Of a stretch of 22,952 nt of DNA, positions 1-21,375 are shown piece after piece. This DNA comes from Delftia acidovorans NBRC 14950. GTDB lineage: Bacteria; Pseudomonadota; Gammaproteobacteria; Burkholderiales; Burkholderiaceae_C. Position numbers and translations under genes: made by a program. The notes beneath the pieces were generated by a model. It was not told the DNA's origin. It ran no database searches and was given only the letters and a program-made list of their open reading frames with translations. Location of the stretch: NCBI RefSeq assembly GCF_001598795.1, contig NZ_BCZP01000044.1, positions 1 through 22,952 of the forward strand, in the 5' to 3' direction. Numbering within the stretch: position 1 is the first letter of the stretch; the number at the start of each line of letters is the position of its first letter.

Positions 1-1755
1 CCCACCCCCGCCCCCGCCCCACTCACCATCGTTTTCTGCGACGACTATCTGGACCCGCGCCTGGGCGCCATTGACGCCAACCAGCGTGCCGCAGGCCGGC
101 CCTGGCTGCTGGTGCGGCCAACAGGCGAGCAGGCCATGGCGGGACCGCTTTTCAAACCCCAGGCAGCGGCCTGCTGGCATTGCCTCGCACACCGCTGGCA
201 ACGCAACCATCCCGCACGCGGCGGCAAGCACGGCCAGCCTCAGGACGGCGACCGCTGCCCGCCCGTGCGCGCCGGCGCCGACCTCATCGCCACGCGGCTG
301 CAGGCCCTGCTGCCCACGGTGCAGCGCCTGCTGGCGCACACCGATGCGGCGCAAACCGTGTGGACGCTGGAGCCTGACCAGCCCCACCCGGTGGCCGCCC
401 GCCCGCAATGCCCGCACTGCGGCACGCCAGGGCTGATGGCCCTGCGCCAGCGTGAACGCATTGCGCCAGTTCCCGGCACGCATGCCGCGCGCGCCGATGG
501 CGGCTGGCGCAGCGTGCCGGCCGAGACCACGGTGCAGCGCCTGTCGCAGCACGTCAGCCCGCTGACCGGCGTGATTGCCAGGGTCACGCCGCTGACGGCC
601 GAGACCGACGAAGCACTCACCGTCTACCGCAGCGAAATCTTCAGAACACCGGCCCCCGGCAGCACCAGCCTGGCCGGCTCCGGAACACAGCTGTGTCTGG
701 GCAAGGGCCTGTCGGCCATGCAGGCCCGCGCCAGCGCCATGTGCGAAGCGGTGGAACGCTACGCCGCCTTCCACCAGGGCGACGAAGCCGTAATCGTCGC
801 CCCCGCCGCCGAGCTGGACGCGCCCTGCATCGCGCCCACGGAACTGGCTCGCTTCAGCGAGCGGCAAACCGCCGGCTTTGCCACCGACAGGCCACCGCAT
901 GCCGTGGCCCCCAGCGCCGGCCAGGGCGAGCCCCTGTGGTGGGCTCCCGCCTGGTCCCTGACCGCCGATGCGCGCCGCTACCTGCCGCTGGCCTTCTGCC
1001 TGGCCCATGCGCCCGCGCAAAGCCAGCACCACGTGGGCTGGACCTCCAACGGCTGCGCCGCAGGCAACACGCGGGAAGAGGCCATCCTGCAAGGCTTCAT
1101 GGAACTGGTGGAACGCGACGCCGCCGCCATCTGGTGGTACGGCCAGATCCGCAGGCCCGCCATTGCGCTGCAAGGCATCGACCAGGCCACGCGCCAGCGC
1201 CTGGACCGCAGTTGCGGCCCGCAATGGTCGTACTGGCTGCTGGACATCACGCATGACTTCGGCATACCCGTGGTCGTCTCCGTGGGCCGCCATGCACAGA
1301 CCGGCCAATGGGCCGTGGGCTTTGGCTGCAGCCTGGACCGCGCCCTGGCCTGCGAACGCGCCCTCACCGAAATCAGCCAGCTGATCGCGGCCGGCAAAAG
1401 CTTTGCCGTGCCCGAGCCACTGCAGGCCTTCCTGCACCCTGCGGACAGCGCCGATGCGCCGCCGCAACAGCCTGCGCCTCTGTCTGGGCACACGCCGGAC
1501 ACCACGCCGCCGGACATTGCCCAGGCCATTGCGCGCTGCGTGGACATCGCACGCGGCCTGGGCCTGGAAACCATCGTCTACGACCACTCGCGCCCCGACA
1601 TCCCTGTGCACACCGTCAAAGTCGTGATTCCCGGCCTGTGCCATATCTGGCCGGAACTGGGCAATCCACGGCTGCGCAACGTACCCGTGGCCCTTGGCTG
1701 GCGCAGCCGGCCGCTGCAGGAATCCGAACTGAATCCGCAGGCTCTGTACGTTTGA
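1..1755 (+). CDS. Fused E1-like (cyclodehydratase C-type) / YcaO (D-type) protein of a TOMM/RiPP azoline-forming system; 5'-truncated by the window edge
   Basis: Frame 1 is open from nt 1 (PTPAPAPLTIVFCDDYLDPRLGAIDANQRAAGRPWLLVRP...), so the GTG at 112 used by the track is internal. Two CxxC pairs (CWHC nt 172-183, CPHC nt 409-420) resemble the Zn site of E1/ThiF-like domains. From about nt 520 the YcaO hallmarks GKGLSAMQARASAMCEAVERYAA and GCAAGNTREEAILQGFMELVERDAAAIWWY appear. GC3 is high throughout. Confidence 0.85.
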   Translation, partial: PTPAPAPLTIVFCDDYLDPRLGAIDANQRAAGRPWLLVRPTGEQAMAGPLFKPQAAACWHCLAHRWQRNHPARGGKHGQPQDGDRCPPVRAGADLIATRLQALLPTVQRLLAHTDAAQTVWTLEPDQPHPVAARPQCPHCGTPGLMALRQRERIAPVPGTHAARADGGWRSVPAETTVQRLSQHVSPLTGVIARVTPLTAETDEALTVYRSEIFRTPAPGSTSLAGSGTQLCLGKGLSAMQARASAMCEAVERYAAFHQGDEAVIVAPAAELDAPCIAPTELARFSERQTAGFATDRPPHAVAPSAGQGEPLWWAPAWSLTADARRYLPLAFCLAHAPAQSQHHVGWTSNGCAAGNTREEAILQGFMELVERDAAAIWWYGQIRRPAIALQGIDQATRQRLDRSCGPQWSYWLLDITHDFGIPVVVSVGRHAQTGQWAVGFGCSLDRALACERALTEISQLIAAGKSFAVPEPLQAFLHPADSADAPPQQPAPLSGHTPDTTPPDIAQAIARCVDIARGLGLETIVYDHSRPDIPVHTVKVVIPGLCHIWPELGNPRLRNVPVALGWRSRPLQESELNPQALYV

Positions 1756-1874: not shown

Positions 1875-2819
1875 ATGGCCCTCTTTCGTAACCAACTCGA
1901 CGGCCGCATCGTCGTGCTGCGGCCCCTGCATACCTTCGGCCGCCATCCCTCGGTCTGCCAGACCGTCATGAAGGCGCCCGACGTCTCCCAGGTCCACGCA
2001 CTGTTCCGCTGGAACCGGCAGACCTGGGAAATCGTGGACCAGAGCCGCAACGGCACCATGCTCAACGGCGTGCGCCTGGTCGCCGGCCGCTGGACCGTTT
2101 TGGCGGTGGGCGCCAAGCTCAGCATGGGCGAAGGCGCAGAAGCGGCCTGGACCGTGGAAGACCTGGGCCCGCCCATCACCTGCCTGAGCCCCGGCCCGGG
2201 ACTGCCCCAGGACGGCCCCCTGGCCCTGAACCCGCGCGGCACCCTGCTGCCCGACGCGCAGGAGCCCGAAGCCAACGTCTTCTTCGAGGATGGCCGCTGG
2301 CTGCAAGAGTCCGGCGACGGCACCGAGCCCCTGGTGGACGGCGCCATGGTCCACACCTCCGCAGGCAGCTGGGAATTCGTGCAATGCGACGACCTGGAAT
2401 CCACGCGGGAAAGCAGCTTCGACCCGCGTGCGCCCAAGCCGCCGGAAGTGTCCTTTCGCTTCACCGTCAGCCAGAACGAAGAGCACGCCAGCCTGACCGT
2501 CATGAGCGACGGCAAACCCATTGCGCTGGGCGAACGCATACACCACTACACCCTGGTCACCCTGGCCCGCGTGCGCCAGCAGGACGCAGAAAAAGGCCTG
2601 GCCCCCGCAAGCCAGGGCTGGATAGAACTGGATGCACTCTCACGCATGCTGGGCGTGGAGCCCTCGTACGTGAACATCCAGATCTTCCGCGCCAAGCACC
2701 AGATCCTCAGCGCCCTGCCCGAATGCGCTGCCTCGCCCGCCCTGGTGGAGCGGCGGCGCGGCAGCCTGCGCTTCGGAGACTTTCCGTTCGAGATCGAAGG
2801 CGGGGCGCGCAGCGCCTGA
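1875..2819 (+). CDS. FHA-domain protein with a C-terminal OmpR/PhoB-like winged-helix DNA-binding domain
   Basis: ATG at 1875 is preceded by AAGGAGA (nt 1858-1864), so the track start at 1821 is less likely. N-terminus is FHA-like: IVVLRPLHTFGRHPSVCQTVM...VSQVHALFRWNRQTWEIVDQSRNGTMLNGVRL. C-terminus has the wHTH pattern LTVMSDGKPIALGERIHHYTLVTLAR...SYVNIQIFRAKHQIL...LVERRRGSLRF (compare VDVHIxRLRxKL ... TVRGxGYRF). Confidence 0.8.
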   Translation: MALFRNQLDGRIVVLRPLHTFGRHPSVCQTVMKAPDVSQVHALFRWNRQTWEIVDQSRNGTMLNGVRLVAGRWTVLAVGAKLSMGEGAEAAWTVEDLGPPITCLSPGPGLPQDGPLALNPRGTLLPDAQEPEANVFFEDGRWLQESGDGTEPLVDGAMVHTSAGSWEFVQCDDLESTRESSFDPRAPKPPEVSFRFTVSQNEEHASLTVMSDGKPIALGERIHHYTLVTLARVRQQDAEKGLAPASQGWIELDALSRMLGVEPSYVNIQIFRAKHQILSALPECAASPALVERRRGSLRFGDFPFEIEGGARSA

Positions 2820-3006
2820 ACGGTGAACTGGAAGGGAGAACGGCAGGCACACGGCGCATCGCTCGCCGCATGTAATCAGCTGTAATTTTCTTGTTGTGCA
2901 CACGTGAATAAAGTGGGAACCGGTTCTTGCCGCCTGCGGTGCGAACCCTCTCACCCTCCTCCCGGACCGGGTTGCCCGAGTCCACTGGCGCACCTGGAAG
3001 ACGCAA

Positions 3007-3354
3007 ATGAGCATGGACATGCGACGTGTACTGTTGATCCCCGCCAGCGCGCGGCCTGTTGACCCTGGCCTGGCCAGCCTTTCCATGGACGCACAGGTCT
3101 GGGAAAACGGCTATCCGCTGGTCGTAGGCAAGGCCCGCCACGGCCTGCTTCAGGACTTCTGGCGGCACTACTACGGCGAATCCGCCGCCATGTTCGTTGC
3201 CGCCGACCAGCTGCTGGAACTGCACAACGACATCATGGCCGCCATCCCCGCCTGCGTGGGCGAGATGCCCGTGCTGCGCTTTCTCAACGATCTCGGAAGA
3301 ATGTGCCTGCAGGCGCATGGGGATGGCAGCGGGCTGCAGGTCATCGGCGACTGA
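3007..3354 (+). CDS. Hypothetical 115-aa cytoplasmic protein (no family recognised)
   Basis: ATG at 3007 follows GGAAG. Codon usage is strongly GC3-biased (ctg/gcc/ggc/gac), as in neighbouring genes. An intrinsic terminator follows at 3403-3432. There is no signal peptide or TM segment. Confidence 0.65.
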   Translation: MSMDMRRVLLIPASARPVDPGLASLSMDAQVWENGYPLVVGKARHGLLQDFWRHYYGESAAMFVAADQLLELHNDIMAAIPACVGEMPVLRFLNDLGRMCLQAHGDGSGLQVIGD

Positions 3355-3402
3355 CGAAACGGATGACTCCTGGGGTTGCCGCGCGTCCCTCTCGCGGCAT
3401 TG

Positions 3403-3432
3403 GGCGCATGCACAATGGCATGCGCCTTTTTT
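3403..3432 (+). terminator. Rho-independent terminator
   Basis: Perfect 9-bp stem ggcgcatgc / gcatgcgcc with the 6-nt loop acaatg, followed by tttttt (3427-3432). Confidence 0.75.
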
Positions 3433-3446
3433 GCGCCCGACTGACC

Positions 3447-3854
3447 ATGAGCAACGCCCCGGATAGCCCCCCTCTTGCCCTGACCGGCAGCTGCCTGTGC
3501 GGCGCCATCGCCTATGAACTGCGGTCCAGCCCCAAGGCCGTGTCGCACTGCCACTGCCGCATCTGCCAGAAGGCCCACGGCGCCGCATTCGCCACCTACG
3601 GCAGCGTGCCGGCAAAGGACCTTGTCTTCACCCAGGGCCAGGAGCAATTGCGCTCCTTTGCCTCATCGCCAGGCATCACGCGCTGCTTTTGCCAGCAATG
3701 CGGCTCATCGCTGACGTGGCACAGCGCGCATTACGCAGAGGGCTCCTGGATCTCTGTTGCTTTGGCCACGCTGGATTCGGAGTTGGCGGTGGGTGGGCAG
3801 CGGCATGTGAATCGGGGGATGGGGATGGGGTGGGTGGATTTTGGAATGGATTGA
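3447..3854 (+). CDS. GFA-family (glutathione-dependent formaldehyde-activating / CENP-V-like) Zn-binding protein
   Basis: ATG at 3447 lies downstream of the terminator, so the track start at 3303 would read through it. Motifs GSCLCGAIAYEL, VSHCHCRICQKAHGAAF and RCFCQQCGSSL match the two Cys clusters of the GFA domain. Confidence 0.85.
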   Translation: MSNAPDSPPLALTGSCLCGAIAYELRSSPKAVSHCHCRICQKAHGAAFATYGSVPAKDLVFTQGQEQLRSFASSPGITRCFCQQCGSSLTWHSAHYAEGSWISVALATLDSELAVGGQRHVNRGMGMGWVDFGMD

Positions 3855-4398
3855 TCGGGGGCTGGTTCGGCCAGGAGCGGCTGGTTGCGACGCCCGCTTG
3901 GGTTGGCTGCTTCAGGCTGAACTGCGACATTCACGGCGCAGTGCGTGAGTGGCTGCAACGGTCAAGACCGGTCACTCGCTGGTTGTTCTGCAAGGCGCTG
4001 CCGGCGCCCAAGTTCCGAGATTTTTGAATTGGCGGTCATGGCGTCTTCCGTGCGTGGCATTTCTTCGTTTTTTAGTTGCGTAGGCTGGTCAGCGTTATTT
4101 TTGGATCTATTTTTTCTATTTTTCTGTTCGCCAGCGCACATCATGGAAAAAATATTTTGGATGCGCAATTAAATGACCTCATCTCGGATTCGGCAGCAGA
4201 ACTGATTTTCATATGAAAAAACCGCCTTCCCGGCAGCTGGCTTTGCGTACGCAGCCGCACATACATGGAATCAAAAAATCACCATGATCAATAGTGCGGC
4301 CTGCTTGAAGAGAAAAATCATCTGATGACCCGGCTTCAGCATCAGTCATCGAGGTATCCATCACGAGAAATGAACGAAACTCATTTCATTGGAATTGT

Positions 4399-5133
4399 AT
4401 GAAAAATTCGGGCACCCATCATGCCAATGTTGAAAACAGGATAATACGCCTGCTTTATCCTTCATCGGCAGATTACTTTGTTGAGCACTGTGAAGTGTTC
4501 GAATTGATTGCACTATCAGAATTGAGCAAAGCAGGCAACCCTCTGGAGCACGCTTACTTTCCTGAAAGCGGATGCATCTCCTTGGTTATGGAAATCAACA
4601 GCAACCATTCCCTGGGACATTCCCTGGGAATAGGCATGGTAGGGAATGAGGCGATGGTCGGGTCAGAAAGCATTCTAGGCCATGCAACACCTCCTCCTTG
4701 GAAGATTTTGGTACAGCAATCTGGTACCTGCTGGCGAATAAGCCGCACGGATTTAGAAAAGCAGTGCACAGAGATCCCCATGCTCGGTGAACTGATTAAA
4801 AAATTCATACTTGTGCGCTTGCATCAACAGGCACGTTTCACAGTCTGCCTGAACTACCATACGGCAGCCTCCCGTCTGGCCCGATGGCTGTTGATGAGCA
4901 GCGACCGATGTGCCGGCAGCTTCCATGTCACACAGCAATTCATGGCATTGATACTGGGCGTACGGCGTGTCAGCATCACCAACATCGCCAGCAGATTTCA
5001 GAACGACGGCATGATTGCCTACAAACGTGGTGAGATGATGGTATTGAACCGCGCAGCGCTGGAAAACAGGGCGTGCAGCTGCTACGCGGCAGACAGACAA
5101 ATCTATTCAAGAATCATGGGCACCCCGGCCTGA
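4399..5133 (+). CDS. Crp/Fnr-family transcriptional regulator (cNMP-binding-like domain plus C-terminal HTH)
   Basis: HAYFPESGCISLV...VGNEAMVG (beta-roll); RLARWLLMSSDR...VTQQFMALILGVRRVSITNIASRFQNDGMIAYKRGEMMVLNRAALENRACSCY (HTH_Crp). ATG at 4399. The gene sits in the AT-richer patch. Confidence 0.85.
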   Translation: MKNSGTHHANVENRIIRLLYPSSADYFVEHCEVFELIALSELSKAGNPLEHAYFPESGCISLVMEINSNHSLGHSLGIGMVGNEAMVGSESILGHATPPPWKILVQQSGTCWRISRTDLEKQCTEIPMLGELIKKFILVRLHQQARFTVCLNYHTAASRLARWLLMSSDRCAGSFHVTQQFMALILGVRRVSITNIASRFQNDGMIAYKRGEMMVLNRAALENRACSCYAADRQIYSRIMGTPA

Positions 5134-5251
5134 AAGACCAAAGTCAAAAATTCAAAAATCCAAGGACGTGCGCCAGCGCACAGACCATCGCTTGGGAACA
5201 CGATGCAATGCAACTCTACGCCGTGCATTGCAAAGCGCCTTGGAGAGCATC

Positions 5252-5410
5252 ATGAGTCTGACCACCATTCTTCTAATCGTCCTGATCCTGGTGCTTGTAG
5301 GCGCTCTGCCTTCATGGCCCCACAGCCGTAGCTGGGGATACGCTCCCAGCATTGCGATAAGCCTGCTGGTGGTGGTGGTCGTGGTATTGCTGCTTACGGG
5401 GCGGGCCTAA
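5252..5410 (+). CDS. DUF3309-family small membrane protein (52 aa)
   Basis: ATG at 5252 is preceded by GGAGAG (5242-5247). Sequence MSLTTILLIVLILVLVGALPSWPHSRSWGYAPS...LLLTGRA matches the pattern I recall for DUF3309 (two TM helices flanking a W-P-x-S-R-x-W-G-Y motif). Confidence 0.75.
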   Translation: MSLTTILLIVLILVLVGALPSWPHSRSWGYAPSIAISLLVVVVVVLLLTGRA

Positions 5411-6195
5411 GTGCCCTCAAAAACACTGAACTGATAGCCGCTGCGCATGCGCTTGGCCCGATACATGGCGCGATCCGCATCAGCAATCAATTGCTCCGCA
5501 GACACAGGCCATTCGTGTGCGATCACGATGCCCATGCTGGCCTCCACTTTCAGCTCCAGCCCGTTGCAGTGAATGGGGTTGGCTATTTCCCTGCAGATCA
5601 TTCTGGCCAAGGCGCGCAGCTGCTCCATTTCCGGAGAGGGCTCCAGCAGGCATGCGAACTCGTCGCCTCCCAGCCTGCACACCAGATCCTCTCGGCGGAT
5701 GAAGGATCTCAGGCGGCCCGATACGACCTTGAGGACTTCATCTCCTGCACTGTGGCCATGGAGATCGTTGATTGTCTTGAAGCCATCCAGATCCATATAC
5801 AACACCGCGATGGGAATGGCCTGGGGCATGGCAAAGCCGATCGCCCTGGAAAGCCGATCCAGGAATGAGAACCTGTTCGGCAGGGAGGTCAGATGGTCAT
5901 GTGTCGCCAGGTGATGCGCTGCGCGTTCATCCGCCTTGGTCCTGTCAAGCTCGAAATGCGCCTTTCCCAGGGCGATACGCGTGTTGTGCAACTCCTCGCG
6001 CAGTGAGTCGCATTGCCGCTGCAGGCCTTGCAAACAGGCTTCAAGCCCCTTGCGCATTCGATTTTCCACGGAGACGCCCAGCCAGTGATTTCGCTCGAAA
6101 TCCGACTGGATGGCGTGGGGGCGAAGGCCTGCTTCGTCTGCAAAAAAAGCACCTGTTCTTCTTGATCCGATGTGCCTTGGATACCTTTGAGCCAT
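5407..6195 (-). CDS. GGDEF-domain diguanylate cyclase with an N-terminal coiled-coil and no recognisable sensor domain
   Basis: ATG (cat at 6193-6195) with GAGGA upstream. Motifs LTSLPNRFSFLDRL, LYMDLDGFKTINDLHGHSAGDEVL and RLGGDEFACLL. An RxxD I-site candidate (RRED) lies 5 residues before GGDEF. Confidence 0.9.
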   Translation of the reverse strand: MAQRYPRHIGSRRTGAFFADEAGLRPHAIQSDFERNHWLGVSVENRMRKGLEACLQGLQRQCDSLREELHNTRIALGKAHFELDRTKADERAAHHLATHDHLTSLPNRFSFLDRLSRAIGFAMPQAIPIAVLYMDLDGFKTINDLHGHSAGDEVLKVVSGRLRSFIRREDLVCRLGGDEFACLLEPSPEMEQLRALARMICREIANPIHCNGLELKVEASMGIVIAHEWPVSAEQLIADADRAMYRAKRMRSGYQFSVFEGT

Positions 6196-7109: not shown

Positions 7110-10100
7110 ATGCAAATGCGCAAGCGCTGGAAATGGATACCGCCACATATCAGCCACCTGCTGGATGCCCGCCATGGAGAAGTCCTGGCACCCATCAGGT
7201 CGGAGCTTTTTGGCTGCGCACACTTTGAACAGTATGGGATGACCCTGGGGGGCGCGCATGCCGTGGGCCGCCCCCGTTTTGGCCAGGCGACGTTCTATCC
7301 ACGTCTTGAAAACAATCTCAGATCCCTGCGCACCTCATTCAGGTACATCGCCGGCCTGCACCAGGAGGGCCATGAGCTGGGATCTGGCGCAGAGTGGCTT
7401 TTCGACAATTTCCACCTGATCGAGGATCAGTTGCGGGAGATCAGCGAAGGCCTTTCCATCCGCTACTACCGCTCGCTGCCCGTCTTGCAGGAGGCCCCCC
7501 TCACAGGCCTTCCACGCATCTACCAGGTGGCATGGTCCTTTGTCGCCCACACCGATGGTGCCTTCGATGAATCGCTATTGACCTGTTTTCTTGACGCATA
7601 CCAGAGCAAGAGCGAACTCAGCCAGGGTGAGCTCTGGGCGCTGCCCACCACGCTGCGGGTGATTCTGGTCGAGAATTTGAGGCGCCTGGCGGAGCGGATT
7701 GCGTGCCAGGCGGCGGCCAAGGAGGTGGCTACCCTGGCTGCGGGCCATATCGACAGGCTCGATGCCGCCGGCTTCCACGAAATCCACCGCTTGATGCAAT
7801 TGCGCGGTGTAGGCCAGGTCTTCCTGTCCCATCTGGCGCAAACACTCTTTGGGCATCGCTCGGTCTTCAGCGACGGCGCGTACATGCAGATCGAAGAGTG
7901 GCTGCGCAGTGCAGTGCCCGATCTGGCGGCACTGCAGGTGCAGCAGCATGCCGACAGCGCGGCCGACCACCTGAGCGTGGGCAATGCGGTGGCCTCGCTG
8001 CGGCTGGTGGGCGCCGGGGACTGGCCCGGTATCGTGGGCAGGACCAGCCTGGTCGTGCGCGCACTGCAGGCCTCGCCCGTTTTCCTGGCCGAGGACGATG
8101 CCAGCCGCAACACTACGCTGCATGGCATAGAGCGCCTGGCCGCGCGCAGCCCTGATCGCTCCGAGGCCGCCGTGGCCAGGGCCCTCATCCGGTTGATGGG
8201 CCAGTCGCAGGGCGCAGCCCAACTGGCCGGGTACTGGCTGCAGGGCGAGGGACGCGCCCAACTGGAGGACATGTTCGGCGCGCGACGGCCCCTGTCGGAC
8301 CGCTGGTATGCCATCCTCCTGCTGTCGCGCACGGTCACCTACATCGGCGCCGTTGTGGCAGCTTCGCTGGCCCTGGTGGCATGGATGCTGCACCTCAACG
8401 GCGCAGGCAATGCCGCCGCGATGCAGGGTCCGCTGGGTCCCCTGGGCCCGCTGGACGCATGGGTGGGCCATGCAGGCCTGGCCCTGCTGGGACTGCTCAT
8501 GTTTTTCCCGGCCTCCGAGGCGGTTTTGGCCCTGGTGAACCGGCTCATATGCGAGTCCGCCACTCCAGCGCATCTGCCGCGCTTTCTCTTGAAGGAGGGG
8601 ATCGGCCCCTCGGCGCGCACCCTGGTCGTCATTCCTGCGCTGCTGAGCAAGCCTGCTGCCATCTCCGAACTGGCACACCGCCTGCTGTTGCACTATCTCG
8701 CCAATCCGGAGCACTGTGTCCATTTCGCGCTGCTGAGCGATTGGGCGGATGCGGACCGGCAGGGCACGGCCGACGATGAGCCGCTGCTCGCGCAGGCACG
8801 CGAACAGATACAGGCGCTCAACCTGCGCTACCCCGCCGGGGAGGGCCAGGCCCAGCGCTTTTTGCTGCTGCACCGCCCCCGGTCCTTCAGCGCGACGCAG
8901 GGCCTGTGGATGGGCTGGGAGCGCAAGCGCGGCAAGCTCGAGCAACTGGTGACGGCGCTGGCGACGGAAATGCCGGCCCCCTTCCTGGAGATGGGCGTGC
9001 TGTCCGACCTGCCTGCCGGCGTGCGCTATGTGCTGACGCTGGACAGCGACACCGAACTGCCGCCGGGCCAGGTCAGGGCCTTGGTGGGCATCGCCGAGCA
9101 CCCGCACAACCAGCCCGAACTGGATGCCACCGGGCGCAAGGTCATACGCGGCTACGGCATCCTGCAGCCGCACGTGGTGGCACCCTTGCCGCAGACGCGG
9201 CAAACCTCTGCCTGGCAGTGGCTTTTTTCCGGACAGCGGGGCATGGACCCCTACAGCGCAGCCACTTCGGATGTGTACCAGGACCTCTTTGGAGAAGGCA
9301 GTTTCATCGGCAAGGGCCTTCTCCATGTGCAGGCCCTGCACACCGTGCTGTCGCAGCGCCTGCCCGAGGACCGCATCCTCAGCCATGACCTGCTGGAAGG
9401 CTCGCTGGCCCGCTGCGCGGCGATCTCCGATGTGACCGTGATGGAGTCGGACCCGCTGCACAGCGACACGGCAGCAGCCCGGCTGCATCGCTGGGTGCGC
9501 GGGGACTGGCAATTGCTGCCCGTGCTGTGGCACGGCAGATACTGGCAACTGGCGGTCATCCACCGATGGAAGCTGTTCGACAACCTGCGCCGCTCCCTGG
9601 TTGCGCCCGTGTCGCTGTTGCTGATCGTGCTGTCCATGGCAGGACATGGCCTGGCCCTGCCTTTGTCCCTGGCACTGGCGGCGGCGGCCTGCATCACCGG
9701 GCCGTTGATAGGCGCCATCGCCGGTGCCCTTCCGCACCATGCGCGATTCGTGGGCAGCCGCTTCGCCCTGCAGTGCGCAAGGCAGTTGCTGCAGGTGGCA
9801 CTGTCCGGCGCGTGGTACCTGGCGCAACTGCTGCCGCAGGCCATGCTCCAAGCGGATGCCGTGGCCCGCACGCTGTACCGCATGGCCGTAAGCAAAAGGC
9901 ATCTGCTGGAATGGACCACCGCCGAAGCATCCCATGCCGCCATCCGGCCCGGCTGGGCGCCGGCCTTGTCAAGGCACTGGCACAGCACCGTGCTCGCGCT
10001 TGCGCTGCTGGCGGCCCTGTGGCTGCTGCCCGCCCCGCTGCCAGCCGCGGCATGGCTGCTGCTGTCCGCCTGGGTTTTCACCCCGGCCCTGGTCTGGCTG

Positions 10101-13100
10101 TGCAATGCCCCGTGGCGGGCCCCTTTCAGCCATGCAGGGCTGCAGACCACAGACCGCGAACTGCTGCAGGACATTGCGCGTGACACCTGGCGGCTTTTCG
10201 AGCGCTGCGTGGGCGACGGCGACAACCACCTGCCCCCGGACAACCTTCAGACGGCGCCGTTCGAGGTGCTCGCCCACCGGACCTCTCCCACCAACATCGG
10301 CCTTTATCTGCTCAGCGCCGCCTGTGCGCGGCAGTTCGGCTGGATCGGCACCCAGGATCTGCTGATGCGCCTGGAAGCGACCTCGGCCACGCTGGCCAGG
10401 ATGGAGCGCCACAACGGCCACTTCCTCAACTGGTATGACACCCAGAGCCTGCAGCCGCTGCTGCCTCGCTATGTCTCCACCGTGGACAGCGGCAACCTGG
10501 GAGCCCATCTGCTTGCCGTATCCCGCGCCTGCCTTGAGCTGGCCCGCGCCCCGCTGGATCCTGCGGCCAGCCAGCAGGCGATCCATGCGGCCAGGCGCCG
10601 GTTGAAACCCTGCCTGGCGGGCGCAGCGCGCCTGTTGCAGCGCCCGCTGCAGCAGACGGCTATCGGCCAATTGCTGGACAGCCCCCTGGCCGATCCCGCA
10701 GACATATCGGCCCAGATGATGCTGCAGGGATTGCTGCGCGACGCCTTTGCGGAGCTTCACGCGCTCGATCTGCCGGAACCTGGGGCCGTGGCCGACACCC
10801 CGCCCGGGCCGCAGGACCCCTTGCCATGGCTGCTGGCCGACCTGCTGGCCACCCTGCAGTCGGCGGCCCTGGACGTCAGCGCCGTCGGCGCGGGGCAGCA
10901 AGATGCGATCTCCCTGCGCCTGCGGACGATGGCCCACACCCTGGAGCAGCTGGCGTGGGATGCGGATTTCCGTTTCCTGCTCGACCCGCGGCGGCAATTG
11001 CTGCACATAGGCTACCGGCTCGAGGAGCAGCAACTCGACGCATCGTTCTACGACCTGCTGGCCTCCGAGTCCCGCACCACCAGCTTGCTGGCCATTGCCA
11101 AGGGCGACCTTCCCGCCAGGCACTGGAAGGCGTTGGGCCGGCCGTTCTTCGCCCATGGGCGCAACGCGATTTTGCGGTCCTGGTCGGGGTCCATGTTCGA
11201 GTATCTGATGCCTTCGCTGGTGGCAGTGGAGCCAGCGGGCAGCGCGCTGGACGAGGCCAACCGCTGCGCACTGCGCGAACAGATGGCTTTTGCCAAGGGC
11301 CTGGGCATTCCCTGGGGCATGTCGGAAAGCGCCTATGCGGCGCGCGACCAGTCGCTGGCCTACCAGTACGCATCCCAGGGAGTGCCCTGCCTGGCACTGC
11401 GCCGCACGCCGATGGCAGAGAAAGTCATCGCCCCCTATGCCACGGCGCTGGCCTGCCAGGTGGCTGCGGTACCTGCGTGCGCGAACTTCCGCGCGCTGGC
11501 CGCCCTGGCTGCGCGCGGGCGCTATGGCTTCTACGAGGCCCTGGACTTTTCTGCCGCACGGCAAATCCATGGCGGAAGGTTCACGCTCGTCAGCACCTAC
11601 ATGGCCCATCACCAGGGCATGACCATCGTGGCCCTGGCCAATGTGCTGCTGCAAGGGGTTGCACAGCGCTGGGGCTCTGACCACCCCCGCATCCAGGCCA
11701 TGTCCACGCTGCTGCAGGAGCGCACCCCCCGCGAGCTTGCAGGCCTGAGGCCCGGCGCGCTGGCCGCACCCTTTTTGCATGCCCAGTCCCGACGGCCTGC
11801 CAACGCGATCCGCACCGTCGTCCCGGGGGCCCGGGCCCTGGAGCCGACCCTCTTGCTGAGCAATGGGCGTTACAGCGTTGCATTGCGCGCCAACGGAGCC
11901 GGATGGAGCCGCCTGGGCAACACCCACATCACGCGTTGGCGCGATGACCTGCTGCGCGATGCGCACGGGAGCTTTGTCTACCTGCGAACGGACCGGGACA
12001 GCGCCCCGGTGTCCGTGACCCGCAGCCCGGCACCCGATCCGCAGGCGGCCTACACCAGCACGTTCCACCCGGACCGCATGTGCTTCGATGCCCGCTGGCC
12101 GCAATGGCGTGTGCGCACCACGGTCTGGATCAGCCCTGAAGACGATATCGAGCTGCGCAAGGTCGTGCTGAACAACCTGGGTAACCTGCCCATGGACGTG
12201 GAGCTGATATCGGCCATGGAGGTGGTCCTGGCCGGCGCGGGCGCGGACGAGGCCCACCCGGCGTTCTCCAGCATGTTCGTGAAGGCGCAGTGGCTGGCGC
12301 AGCAGCAGGGCATGCGTTTTGAGCGGGTTGCCCGCCACAAGGAGGAGAAGGTGGTGCAGATGGCCCATTTCGTGGCCGGCACGCAAGGGGAGGTCCTGGG
12401 CCTGCGCTACCAGAGCGATCGGGCGAAATGGGCCGGCCGCAATCACGCGGCCAGCCAGCCGCAGGCGTGCCTGGAGCCCGCACCGGGTGAAGCTGTCGCG
12501 CTGGACACCGGCCTGGATCCCGTCGCCGTGCTGGGTGTGCGCATGCGCGTGGGCCCTGGCGGACAAGTGAGCGTGGTGTTTGCGACGGCTGCCTGCGACA
12601 GTGCCAGCACCCTCATGGCCATCCTGGACAAGTACCGCCAGCCCAGCTATGTGGAGCGCACCTCCGTGATCTCCGCCACCTTGGCGCAGGGCCAGGATGC
12701 CCTGCAGCACCGGCCCCGGCCCGAGTACCTGCCGGCACTGCAACTTCTGGGCACGGCGCTGATGTTCACCCTGCCCAAGCTGCAGCCCGGCCTGCACCCG
12801 CATCGCGCAGGCGCCGTCCGCCTGCCGCAGATCCAGGACCGGCGCGTGCTGTGGCAGTTGGGCCTTTCGGGCGACAGGCCGATCATCGTGGTGAGTGCCG
12901 CGGCGCCCCAAGGCCTGGGCCTGCTGCGCATACTGGGACAGGCCCTGGGCGAATGGTCGCGTGCCGGCGTGGCCTGCGACCTGGTCGTGCTCAGCAGCGA
13001 GTTCCACTCCTACTACATGCCGGTGCAGGCCGAGCTGAACGCCATCGGCGAACAGCATGAGGCGGCCGGCAACGCCCGCCCAGGGCTCAGCACGACAGGC

Positions 13101-15794
13101 TTTCATGTCCTGGGCCAGGATACGCTCACCCCCGCGCAGGCAGCCTGCCTGGAGCGCCTGGCATGTGTGCGCCTGCATGCCGATGGCCGTGCATTGCTGC
13201 AACAGATCCATGCCTGGAGCGAGCAGTTCGAGGCCCAGGCCAGCCGGCGACGCACAGCGCATCTGCCTCAGAAAATACCGGTCCAGCCAAGCCGGGGCTC
13301 GGCTGTCCCCGCATCGACCGGACAGTTCCTCGGCGACCGTGGCCACTTCCAATTCGATGTCAGCGCATCCCGGCGTCCGGGCAGGCCGTGGATCAACGTC
13401 CTGGCCAACCCGGGCTTCGGAGGGCAGATATCCGAAAGCGGCGCAGGCAATACCTGGGCGATCAACAGCCGGCTCAATCAGGTCACGGCCTGGTCCAATG
13501 ATCCCGTCTGCGACATGCCGTCCGAGTGGTTTTTTCTCCAGAACCGGCGCACACGCGAGACATGGAGCGTGGCCCCCAGCGCCTGGGGGCATGCCCAGGC
13601 CCGCTACAGCGTGGTGCATGGCCAGGGCTTCACTGAAATCGCCCACCGCCACGGCGACCTGGGCATCCGTGCGCGCTGGTGCGTGGACATCAGGACGGCC
13701 GTCAAGCAAGTGCGCATCACCGTGGTCAACCATGGCAACTCCAAGATGCACCTGAGGATGGCGGGCATGGTGGAGTGGATGCTGGGCGAGCGCCGGGCCG
13801 ACCGCGCCACGCTGGAGACCATGGCCCTGTGGGCACCGGCGCCCGACAAGCGCTTTCTGGGCCTGCTATGCACCCAGACCGAGGCTGCGGGCGGCTTTGG
13901 CGGCGGCACGGCTTTCTTCTGCGAATCGCATGCCGGCGAAGGCACCCTCGCGGGAAAGCACGACAGCCTTGACTGGACCTGCGACCGCAGCGAGTTCTTT
14001 GCATCCGACGGACATTTGCAGTTCCCGGCACAGCTGGGGCAGCGCAGCGGATACGGGCTCGAACCCTGCGCAGCCCTGTCGCGCCTGGCCACGCTTCGGC
14101 CCGGCGTGACCTGGGAGCAGACCTATCTGATCGGCCATGCAACGAGTCCCGATGCGGCGCGCCAGTTGCTGGAGCAAGCCACCGTCCTGGCCCCCCAGGC
14201 ACGAGAACAGGCCAACAGCGACTACTGGGATGGCCTGCTCCAGGCCACGCAGATCCACACGCCCGATCCGCTGATGGACGTGCTTGTGAACCGCTGGCTG
14301 CCCTACCAGACGGTCTCCTCGCGGCTGTGGTCCAAGGCCGGTTTCTACCAGGCGGGAGGCGCCACCGGTTACCGCGACCAATTGCAGGACGCCATGGCGC
14401 TTGTCTGGGCCGATCCCGGCGTGCTGCGGCAACAGATCACGCTGTGCGCCTCACGGCAATTCCTCGAAGGGGACGTGCAGCACTGGTGGCATGCGCCTGC
14501 GGGTGCCGGCGTGCGCACCCGCTGCAGCGACGACCTGCTGTGGCTGCCCTTCGCCTGCTCGCACTATCTCCAGGCCACTGGCGACACGGCGCTGCTGCAG
14601 CAGCAGGTTCCGTTCCTGGAGGCGCCCGCCATTGCCGACGGCGTGGACGACGTCTACGAAACACCGGGCATCAGCGAAGTTTCGGCTTCGGTCTACGAGC
14701 ATGCGGCGCGCGCCATCGACCGCAGCCTTGCCGTGGGCGTGCACGGCCTGCCCCTGATGGGCGCAGGAGACTGGAACGATGGCATGAGCGCTGTTGGTCA
14801 CCAAGGCCGGGGCGAATCGGTATGGCTCGCCTGGTTCCTGTGCGCCATCGTCACGGACTGGATACCGCTGGCACGCGGCTGCGGCGACGAAGCACGCGCC
14901 GACGCCTGGCAGACAGCCCTGGCCGGCTGGCGCCAGGCCCTGGATGTTGCGGGCTGGGATGGGCGCTGGTACCGGCGGGCGTTCTTCGATGACGGCACGG
15001 TGCTGGGCTCGGCCCGGCAGCCCGAGGCGCGCATCGATCTGATTGCGCAGGCCTGGTCGGTCCTGGTCACCACGGCAGGCACATCGCGCCCGCGCATTGC
15101 CATGGAAGCGGTGGACACGGAGCTGGTCCAGCCCGATACAGGCCTGATCCCGCTGCTGGCACCGCCCCTGGTCCATGGCCTTCCGCATGCGGGCTACATC
15201 CAGGCCTACCCGGCAGGGGTGCGGGAAAACGGCGGGCAGTACACCCATGCCGGAGCGTGGGCCGTGATGGCCGCCGCTTCGCTGGCCCTGCGCCAGGCGG
15301 CGCATGCCACCGCCACCGGCAGCGAGCGCCTTCAGGACACACCCTACCGGTACTTCACCTACCTGAGTCCGGCCCATCGCGCCAGCCATCCCGTATGGGG
15401 CAGCCATTACGCCATCGAGCCTTACGCCATGGCAGCAGACGTATACACCCAGCCCCCTTTTGTCGGACGGGGCGGATGGAGCTGGTACACGGGCTCGGCT
15501 GCATGGATGCATCGCGCCGCGGTGGAATCCATCCTGGGGCTGCACATCCACGCCGGGGAACTGTTCTTCACCCCTTGCCTTCCTTCCCATTGGCCCCAGG
15601 CCGAACTGGTATTGAAACGGGAGGGCCGCAGCATGCGCTTTCTCCTGGTTCGCGGCAGCACCGACGCGCTGGCGGCCAGGTGTGCCGTGGAGGGTGCAGT
15701 GATGCTGCAGGTATCGCAGAGGCTGCGCTGGACAGAGCTGGCAGCGCACAGCTGCTTTGTCATCCCTTTGCAAGAGGCCGCGATCGGGACCTAG
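7110..15794 (+). CDS. ndvB: Cyclic beta-1,2-glucan synthase (NdvB/ChvB/Cgs type): membrane GT84 glycosyltransferase, central domain and C-terminal GH94 phosphorylase-like domain
   Basis: Single 2894-aa ORF. GT84-type motifs are GWERKRGKL, LTLDSDTELPPG (about nt 9034-9069) and HRWVRGDWQ (about nt 9486-9512). Several hydrophobic segments are present. The C-terminal region carries GGATGYRDQLQD (about nt 14355-14390) and GAGDWNDGMS, typical of GH94-like (alpha/alpha)6 phosphorylases. Length matches known Cgs/NdvB proteins of roughly 2800-2900 aa, from memory. Confidence 0.92.
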   Translation: MQMRKRWKWIPPHISHLLDARHGEVLAPIRSELFGCAHFEQYGMTLGGAHAVGRPRFGQATFYPRLENNLRSLRTSFRYIAGLHQEGHELGSGAEWLFDNFHLIEDQLREISEGLSIRYYRSLPVLQEAPLTGLPRIYQVAWSFVAHTDGAFDESLLTCFLDAYQSKSELSQGELWALPTTLRVILVENLRRLAERIACQAAAKEVATLAAGHIDRLDAAGFHEIHRLMQLRGVGQVFLSHLAQTLFGHRSVFSDGAYMQIEEWLRSAVPDLAALQVQQHADSAADHLSVGNAVASLRLVGAGDWPGIVGRTSLVVRALQASPVFLAEDDASRNTTLHGIERLAARSPDRSEAAVARALIRLMGQSQGAAQLAGYWLQGEGRAQLEDMFGARRPLSDRWYAILLLSRTVTYIGAVVAASLALVAWMLHLNGAGNAAAMQGPLGPLGPLDAWVGHAGLALLGLLMFFPASEAVLALVNRLICESATPAHLPRFLLKEGIGPSARTLVVIPALLSKPAAISELAHRLLLHYLANPEHCVHFALLSDWADADRQGTADDEPLLAQAREQIQALNLRYPAGEGQAQRFLLLHRPRSFSATQGLWMGWERKRGKLEQLVTALATEMPAPFLEMGVLSDLPAGVRYVLTLDSDTELPPGQVRALVGIAEHPHNQPELDATGRKVIRGYGILQPHVVAPLPQTRQTSAWQWLFSGQRGMDPYSAATSDVYQDLFGEGSFIGKGLLHVQALHTVLSQRLPEDRILSHDLLEGSLARCAAISDVTVMESDPLHSDTAAARLHRWVRGDWQLLPVLWHGRYWQLAVIHRWKLFDNLRRSLVAPVSLLLIVLSMAGHGLALPLSLALAAAACITGPLIGAIAGALPHHARFVGSRFALQCARQLLQVALSGAWYLAQLLPQAMLQADAVARTLYRMAVSKRHLLEWTTAEASHAAIRPGWAPALSRHWHSTVLALALLAALWLLPAPLPAAAWLLLSAWVFTPALVWLCNAPWRAPFSHAGLQTTDRELLQDIARDTWRLFERCVGDGDNHLPPDNLQTAPFEVLAHRTSPTNIGLYLLSAACARQFGWIGTQDLLMRLEATSATLARMERHNGHFLNWYDTQSLQPLLPRYVSTVDSGNLGAHLLAVSRACLELARAPLDPAASQQAIHAARRRLKPCLAGAARLLQRPLQQTAIGQLLDSPLADPADISAQMMLQGLLRDAFAELHALDLPEPGAVADTPPGPQDPLPWLLADLLATLQSAALDVSAVGAGQQDAISLRLRTMAHTLEQLAWDADFRFLLDPRRQLLHIGYRLEEQQLDASFYDLLASESRTTSLLAIAKGDLPARHWKALGRPFFAHGRNAILRSWSGSMFEYLMPSLVAVEPAGSALDEANRCALREQMAFAKGLGIPWGMSESAYAARDQSLAYQYASQGVPCLALRRTPMAEKVIAPYATALACQVAAVPACANFRALAALAARGRYGFYEALDFSAARQIHGGRFTLVSTYMAHHQGMTIVALANVLLQGVAQRWGSDHPRIQAMSTLLQERTPRELAGLRPGALAAPFLHAQSRRPANAIRTVVPGARALEPTLLLSNGRYSVALRANGAGWSRLGNTHITRWRDDLLRDAHGSFVYLRTDRDSAPVSVTRSPAPDPQAAYTSTFHPDRMCFDARWPQWRVRTTVWISPEDDIELRKVVLNNLGNLPMDVELISAMEVVLAGAGADEAHPAFSSMFVKAQWLAQQQGMRFERVARHKEEKVVQMAHFVAGTQGEVLGLRYQSDRAKWAGRNHAASQPQACLEPAPGEAVALDTGLDPVAVLGVRMRVGPGGQVSVVFATAACDSASTLMAILDKYRQPSYVERTSVISATLAQGQDALQHRPRPEYLPALQLLGTALMFTLPKLQPGLHPHRAGAVRLPQIQDRRVLWQLGLSGDRPIIVVSAAAPQGLGLLRILGQALGEWSRAGVACDLVVLSSEFHSYYMPVQAELNAIGEQHEAAGNARPGLSTTGFHVLGQDTLTPAQAACLERLACVRLHADGRALLQQIHAWSEQFEAQASRRRTAHLPQKIPVQPSRGSAVPASTGQFLGDRGHFQFDVSASRRPGRPWINVLANPGFGGQISESGAGNTWAINSRLNQVTAWSNDPVCDMPSEWFFLQNRRTRETWSVAPSAWGHAQARYSVVHGQGFTEIAHRHGDLGIRARWCVDIRTAVKQVRITVVNHGNSKMHLRMAGMVEWMLGERRADRATLETMALWAPAPDKRFLGLLCTQTEAAGGFGGGTAFFCESHAGEGTLAGKHDSLDWTCDRSEFFASDGHLQFPAQLGQRSGYGLEPCAALSRLATLRPGVTWEQTYLIGHATSPDAARQLLEQATVLAPQAREQANSDYWDGLLQATQIHTPDPLMDVLVNRWLPYQTVSSRLWSKAGFYQAGGATGYRDQLQDAMALVWADPGVLRQQITLCASRQFLEGDVQHWWHAPAGAGVRTRCSDDLLWLPFACSHYLQATGDTALLQQQVPFLEAPAIADGVDDVYETPGISEVSASVYEHAARAIDRSLAVGVHGLPLMGAGDWNDGMSAVGHQGRGESVWLAWFLCAIVTDWIPLARGCGDEARADAWQTALAGWRQALDVAGWDGRWYRRAFFDDGTVLGSARQPEARIDLIAQAWSVLVTTAGTSRPRIAMEAVDTELVQPDTGLIPLLAPPLVHGLPHAGYIQAYPAGVRENGGQYTHAGAWAVMAAASLALRQAAHATATGSERLQDTPYRYFTYLSPAHRASHPVWGSHYAIEPYAMAADVYTQPPFVGRGGWSWYTGSAAWMHRAAVESILGLHIHAGELFFTPCLPSHWPQAELVLKREGRSMRFLLVRGSTDALAARCAVEGAVMLQVSQRLRWTELAAHSCFVIPLQEAAIGT

Positions 15795-16510
15795 CAAGCC
15801 GTGATGTCCGGCAGCAACCGGTCGTACTCTTTTCTCACCACCGCATAGCACTCGCAGGAGCGCTGCTCCAGGCCCGTACGGTCCAGCACACTGATGCGGC
15901 CACGCGAATAGCGGATGATCTCGGCGCGCTGCAGCTTCAGCGCGGCCTCGGTCACTCCCTCGCGGCGGACTCCGAGCATGTTGGAGATCAGCTCCTGCGT
16001 CATCACCAGGTCCGTGCCCTGGAGCCGGTCCAGGCTCAGCAGCAACCAGCGGCAAAGCTGCTGGTCAAGTGAATGGTGACGGTTGCAGACGGCGGTCTGG
16101 GCCATCTGGGTGATCAACGCCTGCGTGTAGCGCAGCAACAGGTGAAGAACCGGGCCACCGCGCTCGAACTCCGCCTGCATGGCACCGACCTTCAGCCGAT
16201 AGCCCCTGCCGGCGCTTTGCACGACCGCCCTGCTGGTCGTGGACCCTCCGCCCATGAAGAGGGAAATGCCCACAATCCCTTCGTTGCCCACCACCGCGAT
16301 CTCCGCCGACGCACCGTTCTCCATCACGTACAGCAGGGAGACGATCGCCGTCGTGGGAAAGTACACGTGACTCATGACCCGGCCCGCTTCATACAGCACC
16401 TGGCCCAGGGCAAGCTCCACGGGCTCCAGCGCAGGCTCCCACCGCTGCCATGGCTCGGGTGGCAAGGAGTCGAGCAAATGATTGCCGGTGGACGCGGCGC
16501 AAGAGGGCAT
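15791..16510 (-). CDS. Crp/Fnr-family transcriptional regulator, paralogue of the 4399-5133 gene
   Basis: Internal ATG (cat at 16508-16510) gives MPSCAASTGNHLLDSLPPEPW.... Motifs HVYFPTTAIVSLLYV, VGNEGIVG and RWLLLSLDRLQGTDLVMTQELISNMLGVRREGVTEAALKLQRAEIIRYSRGRISVLDRTGLEQRSCECY. The longer track start at 16666 adds an Arg/Cys-rich tail that looks non-coding. Confidence 0.85.
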   Translation of the reverse strand: MPSCAASTGNHLLDSLPPEPWQRWEPALEPVELALGQVLYEAGRVMSHVYFPTTAIVSLLYVMENGASAEIAVVGNEGIVGISLFMGGGSTTSRAVVQSAGRGYRLKVGAMQAEFERGGPVLHLLLRYTQALITQMAQTAVCNRHHSLDQQLCRWLLLSLDRLQGTDLVMTQELISNMLGVRREGVTEAALKLQRAEIIRYSRGRISVLDRTGLEQRSCECYAVVRKEYDRLLPDITAC

Positions 16511-16812
16511 AAAGGCAATTCCAGTGCAGTCATCCCGGCACTTCAAGAGAGTCTGGAGGCAGCAGAAATGACGCTCTTGCATCTTACGGGCCAGGCCCAC
16601 CAGCTCTGTGCGGTACCGCACATACCGGCAGTGGCATCTGTGCCTGGCCCTGCGGGACCCCCGCATCCAGAAAGCCCCCCGAAAACCCTTGTGCCGCCAC
16701 GCTTACAACATAATCTGTCCGCGGCCGGTTTGACTACATCCCATCACCTTGACCAGGAACACAGTGGACTTTCAGGAGCCATCTTGGCTTTTGAAGACCA
16801 TAGGAGTTTCAC

Positions 16813-18809: not shown

Positions 18810-18819
18810 GAACCATTCC

Positions 18820-21231: not shown

Positions 21232-21375
21232 GCCTGTATCTGGTTGTCTATCCATCAAATTCAAAGCGTACCAAAACGGTGGTTGCCGACCGTGTATCTG
21301 AGCGTCAACCAAGGGGGCAGCAGTCCACAGTAAGGGGTTGCTGCTGCAAGGCAGGCCCCAGCGGCCTGCTTCCAG

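Follow-up and report, generated by a model that had tools for sequence, protein, structure and literature searches.

We report here on a stretch of 22,952 nucleotides from Delftia acidovorans NBRC 14950 (contig NZ_BCZP01000044.1, positions 1 to 22,952 of the forward strand), referred to below as the window, and on the gene cluster that its 5' edge cuts through. Going by profile matches and gene order, the window carries the last 1.8 genes of a five-gene cassette, namely the 3' part of a gene for a fused E1-like/YcaO cyclodehydratase and a gene for a protein with an FHA domain. To judge by the passages of the original paper on which we rely, the cassette is the NHLP-Burk TOMM (thiazole/oxazole-modified microcin) cluster of Haft, Basu & Mitchell (BMC Biol 2010; PMC2887384), and hence of a known kind. 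Overall, this cassette, with thiazoline formation at the cysteine in the tail of its precursor protein, is the best explanation of what we find, and we hold it to be reasonably probable. The chemistry would most likely be an ATP-dependent thiazoline formation at (T/S)-Cys, as the kinship of the enzyme suggests.

The fused enzyme and the five-gene cassette

Frame 1 of the forward strand is open from nucleotide 1 and closes with a stop codon at 1753-1755 after 584 codons; the list of open reading frames (ORFs) offers an internal GTG at 112 as the sole start of this first gene, because the gene overruns the 5' edge of the window. Its best homologue (P0001, 743 aa, 97% identical) is recorded as 'TOMM precursor leader peptide-binding protein [Delftia acidovorans]', full-length orthologues have 722-749 aa, and nucleotide 1 of the window is nucleotide 478 of the gene in the nearest chromosome, about 159 codons lying outside the window. 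These missing codons should hold the N-terminal leader-binding domain; the N-terminal 130 aa of the enzyme do not detectably resemble LynD's leader-recognition domain (RRE). In the fragment itself, Pfam returns a complete YcaO domain (PF02624, 273 bits, E=4.2e-81), and NCBIfam the cyclo_dehyd_2 or 'TOMM precursor leader peptide-binding' domain (TIGR03882, 97.4 bits against a cutoff of 36.9), together with two CxxC motifs, CWHC and CPHC. The first-pass annotation, made from the letters alone, had described a YcaO protein fused to an E1/ThiF-like domain with paired CxxC motifs, and this is what the profiles find. Among proteins of solved structure the closest in the PDB are LynD, TruD and MusD (E=5e-98 to 1.5e-90), whose matches span most of the protein in two stretches, and the acidic YcaO motifs CEAVERY and ELVERD are identical in LynD. 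On these scores and alignments, the domain matches and the CxxC motifs are not attributable to chance.

Several records of the family at JGI bear the name 'ribosomal protein S12 methylthiotransferase accessory factor', which would make the enzyme a housekeeping YcaO of the E. coli RimO/S12 type, outside the peptides that are made on ribosomes and modified after translation (RiPPs). The first-pass annotation had asked for a check on this RimO-associated clade, and the answer is negative. The corresponding model (NF040716, YcaO_for_S12, E. coli type) scores 19.3 bits against a cutoff of 700, therefore the name at JGI is an over-propagated misannotation; the enzyme moreover carries an E1-like fusion domain, has a dedicated precursor next door, and finds its nearest solved relatives in the cyanobactin heterocyclases named above. 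The profile scores refute this reading, and we give it practically no weight.

The upstream context was drawn from a scan of one genome per species (31 loci) and from the chromosome that carries P0001. The latter, a D. acidovorans chromosome of 6.5 Mb (locus L036), is collinear with the window over 11.7 kb at 98.5% nucleotide identity, and has, from upstream to downstream, the TOMM kinase/cyclase, the RNP_Burkhold precursor, the LCM-family methyltransferase and the YcaO gene. In another locus of 95% identity (L005), the kinase/cyclase reaches 1276.3 bits with the model TIGR03903, whose cutoff is 705.75, and the precursor, matched in two tandem domains, has 168.7 bits with TIGR03795 against a cutoff of 41. 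The first-pass annotation had predicted that a precursor, a dehydrogenase and a kinase would lie upstream of the window, and had stated that a kinase/cyclase fusion of roughly 1350 aa accompanies such enzymes. The precursor and the kinase/cyclase are indeed upstream in both relatives, the latter with 1362 aa in L036, whereas the dehydrogenase is not: no FMN-dependent dehydrogenase of SagB type is seen within 10 kb on either side in L036, nor within 10 kb upstream in L005. Likewise, TfuA, protease and transporter genes are missing within 10 kb on either side in L036, as are an ABC exporter and an immunity gene within 10 kb.

As to the extent of the cassette, about 25 loci from Delftia, Comamonas, Variovorax and Xylophilus share, by tblastn over all loci, one gene order: kinase/cyclase, precursor, methyltransferase, YcaO, FHA; the FHA gene adjoins the cluster in about 25 Comamonadaceae loci and also in Burkholderia. 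The flanking aldolase-like, GFA, Crp, GGDEF and GH94 genes are common to Delftia loci only, and therefore the FHA gene belongs to the cassette, a point absent from the first-pass annotation. The FHA protein of the window is also found, identical, on four short metagenome contigs (L001-L004), which break off within the YcaO gene or shortly before it. When Delftia is compared with the other genera, no member of the cassette is better conserved than the precursor: median identities are about 73% for the precursor, 68% for the kinase, 64% for the FHA protein, 60% for the YcaO protein and 59% for the methyltransferase.

Outside this group the order and content of the cassette vary. In Burkholderia stagnalis, the FHA gene is overlapped by the kinase gene, two split precursors and the YcaO gene follow, and the methyltransferase is missing. 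Two related Variovorax loci (L021 and L033) have lost kinase and FHA genes together and kept precursor, methyltransferase and YcaO. In a metagenome-assembled genome (MAG) of Myxococcales (L039, L040; 8592-14469), by comparison, a full-length FHA homologue lies directly 5' of a gene for a 1458-aa kinase/AAA_16 STAND protein, with no YcaO or precursor gene nearby. A Roseivirgaceae MAG (L029) has in a single ORF of 1024 aa (2593-5667) an LCM methyltransferase (aa 36-199) and an E1-like/YcaO protein (YcaO at aa 668-986); this fusion ties both activities to one pathway. An expanded cluster is present in an Oleiphilus MAG (L027, 5163-19949), having three fused YcaOs and a kinase/cyclase, and besides these an Irp3-like thiazolinyl imide reductase, a PhyH dioxygenase and a class I methyltransferase; its single-domain precursors end in KIFPFTS and SYPFTTCA. 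Locus L028 seems to duplicate the L027 region on another contig of the same MAG, to judge from matching tblastn coordinates and identities. From the patterns in Burkholderia, Variovorax, Myxococcales, Roseivirgaceae and Oleiphilus we infer two modules, which would be a core of precursor and YcaO, joined in some lineages by the methyltransferase, and a separable pair of kinase and FHA protein. Degenerate clusters are observed too, in Burkholderia cepacia (L037, L038), with a YcaO remnant of 95 aa in L037 and a kinase cut to 926 aa in L038; no precursor genes are called in the two loci, and the gene for the FHA protein is intact.

Downstream of the FHA gene, an ORF of 115 aa could be a sixth member of the cassette. 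It is conserved by tblastn in about 27 Comamonadaceae loci, with 43-65% identity outside D. acidovorans, and its G+C content at third codon positions (GC3) of 0.81 is like that of the cassette genes; no Pfam or NCBIfam family matches it. The hairpin and T run that follow it are likely the 3' boundary of the transcription unit. In Variovorax and Comamonas, a conserved 218-aa protein is encoded between the FHA gene and the 115-aa ORF, and some loci also encode a lipoprotein there, which has about 145 aa and the lipobox LTGC; the D. acidovorans window has neither.

The cluster is not newly noticed, having been published in 2010, and current annotation pipelines already name its genes correctly. 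In the passages of Haft et al. at hand, D. acidovorans SPH-1 is named with a fused tandem precursor and a large Ser/Thr kinase, precursors are said to end in Cys or Cys-Cys, and a matching transporter is said to be missing (PMC2887384). Our loci agree in that the precursor, kinase/cyclase and E1-like models are above the NCBIfam cutoffs, with the SagD model TIGR03604 just under, and against those passages nothing categorical differs. Added to them here are the constant FHA member, the distribution of the LCM gene, the degenerate cyclase-like domain and the near-invariant tail across the family. The first-pass annotation had placed this fused enzyme in Burkholderia, Acidovorax and Delftia, in line with the same passages (PMC2887384), and had stated that no product of the cluster type was characterised. 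The literature agrees: a 2015 survey still lists the NHLP-Burk cluster as uncharacterised (PMC4603692), and no later characterisation is found in a search that left subscription journals largely uncovered.

The precursor tail and the proposed chemistry

The precursor is unusual in where its conservation lies. When 47 diverse members are aligned, conservation is highest over the last ten residues (NNTGxAYPFTC), where column identity is 0.88-1.0, and the tail cysteine is usually the sole cysteine of the protein in the range from Delftia to Variovorax (P0121 to about P0150). A profile search of 1.84 billion representative proteins gives at least 509 precursor clusters at 50% identity (E<=1e-3), and 115 of 127 full-length representatives at this identity carry [YFW]PxxC among their final 14 residues. 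The cysteine is followed by one residue in 64 cases, two in 32, three in 12 and none in 4, thus the terminal cysteine of Delftia and Variovorax is the minority state in the family; the C-terminus reads YPFTC in these two genera and YLFTCC in Burkholderia. No Gly-Gly cleavage motif stands before the tail. The AlphaFold2 (AF2) model of the precursor, made with this alignment, has a two-lobed fold of good confidence (pLDDT 87.5, pTM 0.85), in which confidence is low for the linker between the lobes and for about the last ten residues; the latter, with means of 58 and 41 over 10-residue blocks, are read as a flexible tail. Foldseek gives no significant match of the predicted fold in the PDB. Among the weak matches, nitrile hydratase alpha chains prevail (E about 1.5, TM about 0.3); they fit the family name and are not evidence.

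In a typical RiPP, the leader is conserved and the core is variable, and the precursor of the NHLP-Burk cluster has the reverse pattern. The leaders of the NHLP type are known to be structured and protein-like, and the azoline-forming YcaOs MprC and NstD act on them (PMC12455567), which the conserved and folded precursor fits. The likeness to the MprC/NstD systems is that a YcaO cyclodehydratase engages a structured, protein-like leader. Their precursors (TIGR03793), however, come in many copies, with leaders of about 80 aa, a Gly-Gly site and variable cores, while Delftia has a single precursor of TIGR03795 type, with two fused leader-like domains and an invariant tail of 5-10 aa.

For the chemistry we propose the following course. 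The N-terminal part of the enzyme, outside the window, would dock the precursor by its structured, NHLP-type body, and the YcaO domain would activate, with ATP, the backbone amide before the near-invariant cysteine of the tail ...YNNTGxAYPF(T/S)C, so that the cysteine thiol may attack the activated amide and close a thiazoline (-18 Da). The ring would stay at the azoline level, because the cluster is without a SagB-type dehydrogenase. Enzymes of the LCM family, such as LCMT1/PPM1 and TcmP, carry out carboxyl O-methylation, and the one encoded here would probably methylate this substrate too, on a carboxylate (+14 Da); its target could be the C-terminal carboxylate in Delftia and Variovorax, whose tail ends with the cysteine, and such a methylation might ease the cyclisation. 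A search of this methyltransferase against the sequences in the PDB yields spurious titin matches only. The LCM gene is present in Comamonadaceae and Bacteroidota and absent from the Burkholderia clusters. We had considered that cyclisation might in general depend on methylation of the C-terminal carboxyl group, and this idea is downgraded: as Burkholderia has no LCM gene and most tails extend past the cysteine, such methylation is not a general requirement.

The azoline chemistry is supported in three ways: the nearest solved enzymes, LynD and TruD, heterocyclise cysteine, the distant Oleiphilus cluster carries a thiazolinyl imide reductase, and MprC and NstD, which form azolines, act on structured NHLP leaders (PMC12455567). 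In common with the cyanobactin heterocyclases LynD, TruD, PatD and MusD (PDB 4V1T, 4BS9, 7U58), the Delftia enzyme has the E1-like/YcaO fusion in three domains, the pair of CxxC motifs, the acidic motifs for ATP/Mg and an ...LNP... region near the C-terminus. Its substrate is unlike theirs, being a folded NHLP-type protein of 261 aa with a single conserved cysteine in place of a short leader with hypervariable core cassettes, and its cluster has no proteases of PatA/PatG type.

Several points weigh against the thiazoline cassette as we draw it. The upstream genes are known from close relatives and not from the window itself, the chemistry is inferred from homology alone, and the SagD model TIGR03604 falls just under its cutoff of 219.25, with 215.3 bits for the fragment and 213.3 bits for the full-length protein of L005. 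The enzyme ends in ...LNPQALYV, without PxPxP, and about 118 of 120 homologues follow the consensus LNPxxL[YFL][VIL]. The endings of LynD and TruD are Pro-rich (our alignment stops at NPT), as against NPQALYV in Delftia. A C-terminal PxPxP motif has been linked to azoline-forming YcaOs (PMC12338566), and the action of a YcaO on a true C-terminal residue had no precedent before DapY of the daptides, where it takes place after decarboxylation (PMC12338566). DapY is like the proposed Delftia enzyme in acting at the extreme C-terminus of a ribosomal peptide. It carries PxPxP, however, and cyclises an amine installed by other enzymes after decarboxylation (PMC12338566), while in Delftia the nucleophile would be the native cysteine thiol, with the carboxylate still present or perhaps methylated. 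To these points may be added that Burkholderia is without an LCM gene and most tails run 1-3 residues past the cysteine, and that the winged-helix assignment of the FHA protein, treated below, has no statistical support.

With the same cluster and the same substrate, the YcaO might instead make a thioamide or an amidine, or be an ATP-dependent peptidase like MusD, perhaps trimming the 1-3 residues after the cysteine. MusD, for which Zheng & Nair reportedly described peptidase activity in 2023, ranks in the top three of the PDB matches (E=1.5e-90), the cassette of L036 has no protease gene, the C-terminus is without PxPxP, and a partial match to the thioamidation model TIGR03266 reaches 105.8 bits. 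This score is nevertheless far under the cutoff of 365, a TfuA-type partner is not seen among the neighbours in L036, and the E1-like fusion with its LynD/TruD-like architecture is typical of azoline formers. A nucleophilic cysteine at the conserved site and the thiazolinyl reductase in the distant Oleiphilus version also speak for azoline formation, and we judge these other outcomes to be rather improbable.

The nature of the product is a second matter. NCBIfam calls the precursor family 'TOMM bacteriocin', and a two-chain microcin was proposed in the passages of Haft et al. that we use (PMC2887384), so that a classical exported bacteriocin comes to mind, in which an unlinked protease and exporter would remove the NHLP leader and a short thiazoline peptide would hit competing bacteria. 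We find this unlikely. The vicinity out to 10 kb has no protease, ABC exporter or immunity gene, Haft et al., as far as the same passages go, saw no matching transporter in these species (PMC2887384), and the tail is not preceded by a Gly-Gly motif. The presumed core is near-invariant in the 115 of 127 representatives, while antagonistic RiPP cores normally vary, and the precursor is more conserved than the enzymes (median about 73% against about 60% for the YcaO protein). Taken together, the near-invariant tail, the predicted fold, the missing protease and exporter nearby and the linked kinase and FHA genes point away from a conventional bacteriocin and towards a modified protein, a cofactor or a signal. 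It is tentatively possible that the 'precursor', rather than supplying leader and core of an exported toxin, is a conserved, folded, two-lobed, nitrile-hydratase-like protein whose YPF(T/S)C tail would be converted by the YcaO, with the LCM enzyme in some lineages. The outcome would be either a functional prosthetic end of this protein or a single conserved small molecule, much as pyrroloquinoline quinone and mycofactocin derive from invariant precursor tails, and it would act within the cell, in a circuit with the co-inherited STAND kinase and the FHA protein.

The kinase and the FHA protein

The FHA gene likely starts at the ATG at 1875, which has AGGAG 11 nt upstream and gives the 314-aa form used in public records; the alternative ATG at 1821 would give 332 aa. 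In the AF2 model of the protein (pLDDT 90.6), the FHA domain is N-terminal, a beta domain lies in the middle, and the C-terminal domain is of winged-helix-like topology. The N-terminal domain matches many FHA structures in Foldseek, including EmbR (2FF4, E=6e-6). The C-terminal domain, of three beta strands, three helices and a beta hairpin, has an invariant ERRRG...R.G motif, and some NCBI records name its homologues 'DNA-binding protein'. By its predicted topology and by the motif as aligned by eye, it tentatively resembles the winged helix of OmpR/PhoB. Searches for such a relation return little: Pfam at E<=10 gives nothing relevant, with a weak match to Bac_rhamnosid-like_N only (E=0.011, 15.7 bits), no profile match is found among PDB sequences, hhalign against PhoB gives the expected register at a probability of 1%, and Foldseek with the whole model has FHA matches only among the best 50 listed.

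In the kinase, the motifs GxGxxG, VAIK, HRDLKPxN, DFG and APE are intact, and so are Walker A and B. The cyclase-like domain that follows is only a partial Pfam match of 32 bits. The canonical class III cyclase motif has two metal-binding aspartates. The first of these is lost in 10 of 10 aligned members (VLCCSVS or similar) and the second is also lost in L024 and L030, and therefore the domain probably does not function as a cyclase; judged by its residues, this part of the TOMM kinase is a probable pseudo-cyclase, and the family name may mislead. A cAMP signal from this domain to the Crp-like regulator of the window (4399-5133) was considered and rejected, the aspartate being lost in all members and the Crp gene being linked in Delftia only.

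A Ser/Thr kinase and an FHA-containing, OmpR-like transcription factor are known as a pair in M. tuberculosis, namely PknH and EmbR. By analogy, the kinase and the FHA protein of the cassette would be a phospho-dependent pair for signalling or regulation rather than biosynthetic enzymes. Four observations argue for this role: the two Variovorax loci keep the core without both genes, the Myxococcales MAG has the pair without YcaO or precursor, the kinase and Walker motifs are intact, and the phosphothreonine-binding residues of the FHA domain are invariant. The likeness to PknH-EmbR is the genetic pairing of a Hanks-type kinase with a protein of FHA and putative winged-helix domains. Unlike in EmbR, the FHA domain here is N-terminal, so that the order is reversed, a BTAD domain is missing, and the DNA-binding assignment is not significant; unlike PknH, the kinase is of the STAND type, is cytoplasmic and has a cyclase-like domain.

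The kinase might alternatively be biosynthetic, phosphorylating a Thr or Ser of the tail for elimination or for recognition, as the class III/IV lanthipeptide synthetases do. It has weak matches to the LanL and LanKC kinases (89 and 52 bits), the tail has conserved Thr and Ser residues, and the FHA domain could read a phosphothreonine on the precursor. These scores are far under the cutoffs of 650 and 575, however, and no lyase or cyclase partner is present. The two Variovorax genomes that retain precursor, methyltransferase and YcaO without kinase and FHA, the pair that exists without precursor or YcaO, and the build of the protein as a STAND signalling ATPase, with AAA_16 and TPR, are also at variance with it, and we consider a biosynthetic kinase very unlikely.

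The remaining window and the meaning of the cluster

The features of the cassette and of the far part of the window are collected in Table 1.

Table 1. Positions of features in the window and in related loci
Feature	Sequence	Position	Strand	Basis or remark
Fused E1-like/YcaO cyclodehydratase, 3' part, 584 of ~743 codons	window	1..1755	+	Profile matches, 97% identity to P0001
E1-like domain (cyclo_dehyd_2, TIGR03882), aa 33-192 of fragment	window	97..576	+	NCBIfam; aligns with LynD and TruD domain 2
CxxC motif 1, CWHC, aa 58-61	window	172..183	+	Aligns with LynD CWDC, TruD CWHC
CxxC motif 2, CPHC, aa 137-140	window	409..420	+	Aligns with CPTC of LynD, TruD
YcaO ATP-dependent amide-activating domain, aa 234-546	window	700..1638	+	Pfam PF02624
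FHA-domain protein, 314 aa, cassette member	window	1875..2819	+	Pfam FHA 48 bits; synteny
FHA phosphothreonine-binding domain	window	1932..2129	+	GR, SxxH, NG signature invariant in 45 homologues
C-terminal domain of FHA protein, tentative OmpR/PhoB-type winged helix	window	2448..2801	+	Predicted secondary structure
115-aa ORF, possible sixth cassette member	window	3007..3354	+	tblastn matches downstream of FHA gene
Terminator-like G+C-rich hairpin and T run	window	3402..3427	+	10-pair stem, 7 G-C pairs; consensus match only
PHB-depolymerase-type esterase	window	18460-19935	+	
GNAT acetyltransferase	window	20752-21312	-	
GNAT acetyltransferase	window	21376-21813	-	
IPTL-CTERM protein	window	22028-22786	-	
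STAND Ser/Thr kinase/cyclase-like protein, 1362 aa	L036	4312-8400		Pkinase, Guanylate_cyc, AAA_16, TPR domains
RNP_Burkhold precursor, 261 aa	L036			PF27793; upstream of the YcaO gene, with the methyltransferase gene between; ends YPFTC
LCM-family methyltransferase, 288 aa	L036			Between precursor and YcaO gene
Extra genes between FHA gene and 115-aa ORF	L020	13263-13919 and ~14600-15038		
Extra gene between FHA gene and 115-aa ORF	L011	13198-13890		
Extra gene between FHA gene and 115-aa ORF	L008	13376-14107		

Beyond the cassette, the G+C content of the window goes down to 0.476 at about 4000-5200, compared with about 0.67 elsewhere. The Crp-like regulator lies in this stretch and has a GC3 of 0.58, and the low values together suggest a small foreign insert. 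The GFA gene (about 3449-3856) has a GC3 of 0.57 although its overall G+C of 0.64 is near normal, and beside the low-G+C stretch are a small ORF of DUF3309 and a GGDEF diguanylate cyclase (5407-6195, minus strand). A protein of 2894 aa with Glycoamylase, GH94 supersandwich and GH94 catalytic domains, which resembles cyclic beta-1,2-glucan synthase, is encoded at 7110-15794 on the plus strand, followed by a second Crp-like regulator on the opposite strand (15791-16666). The esterase, GNAT and IPTL-CTERM genes are ordinary and unrelated to the cluster.

The window by itself adds little, as it holds only the 3' edge of a cluster already named. What is new in this analysis is the conservation and predicted fold of the precursor, the near-invariant YPF(T/S)C tail, the separable FHA-kinase pair, and the cyclase-like domain without its metal-binding aspartate. 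Since 2010 the NHLP-Burk cluster has remained an orphan, and its hosts include Burkholderia (with the B. pseudomallei/B. mallei group), plant pathogens in Acidovorax, and the rhizosphere bacteria Delftia and Variovorax. Among them, Delftia is a simple test case, with one fused precursor and a single cysteine at its extreme end, and its system could show whether a residue at the true C-terminus can be cyclised by a YcaO and whether it is carboxyl methylation that makes this possible. If the tentative reading of the precursor as a conserved, modified protein is true, the cluster would be a RiPP-like pathway that yields a cofactor, a signal or a modified protein, and not an antibiotic.

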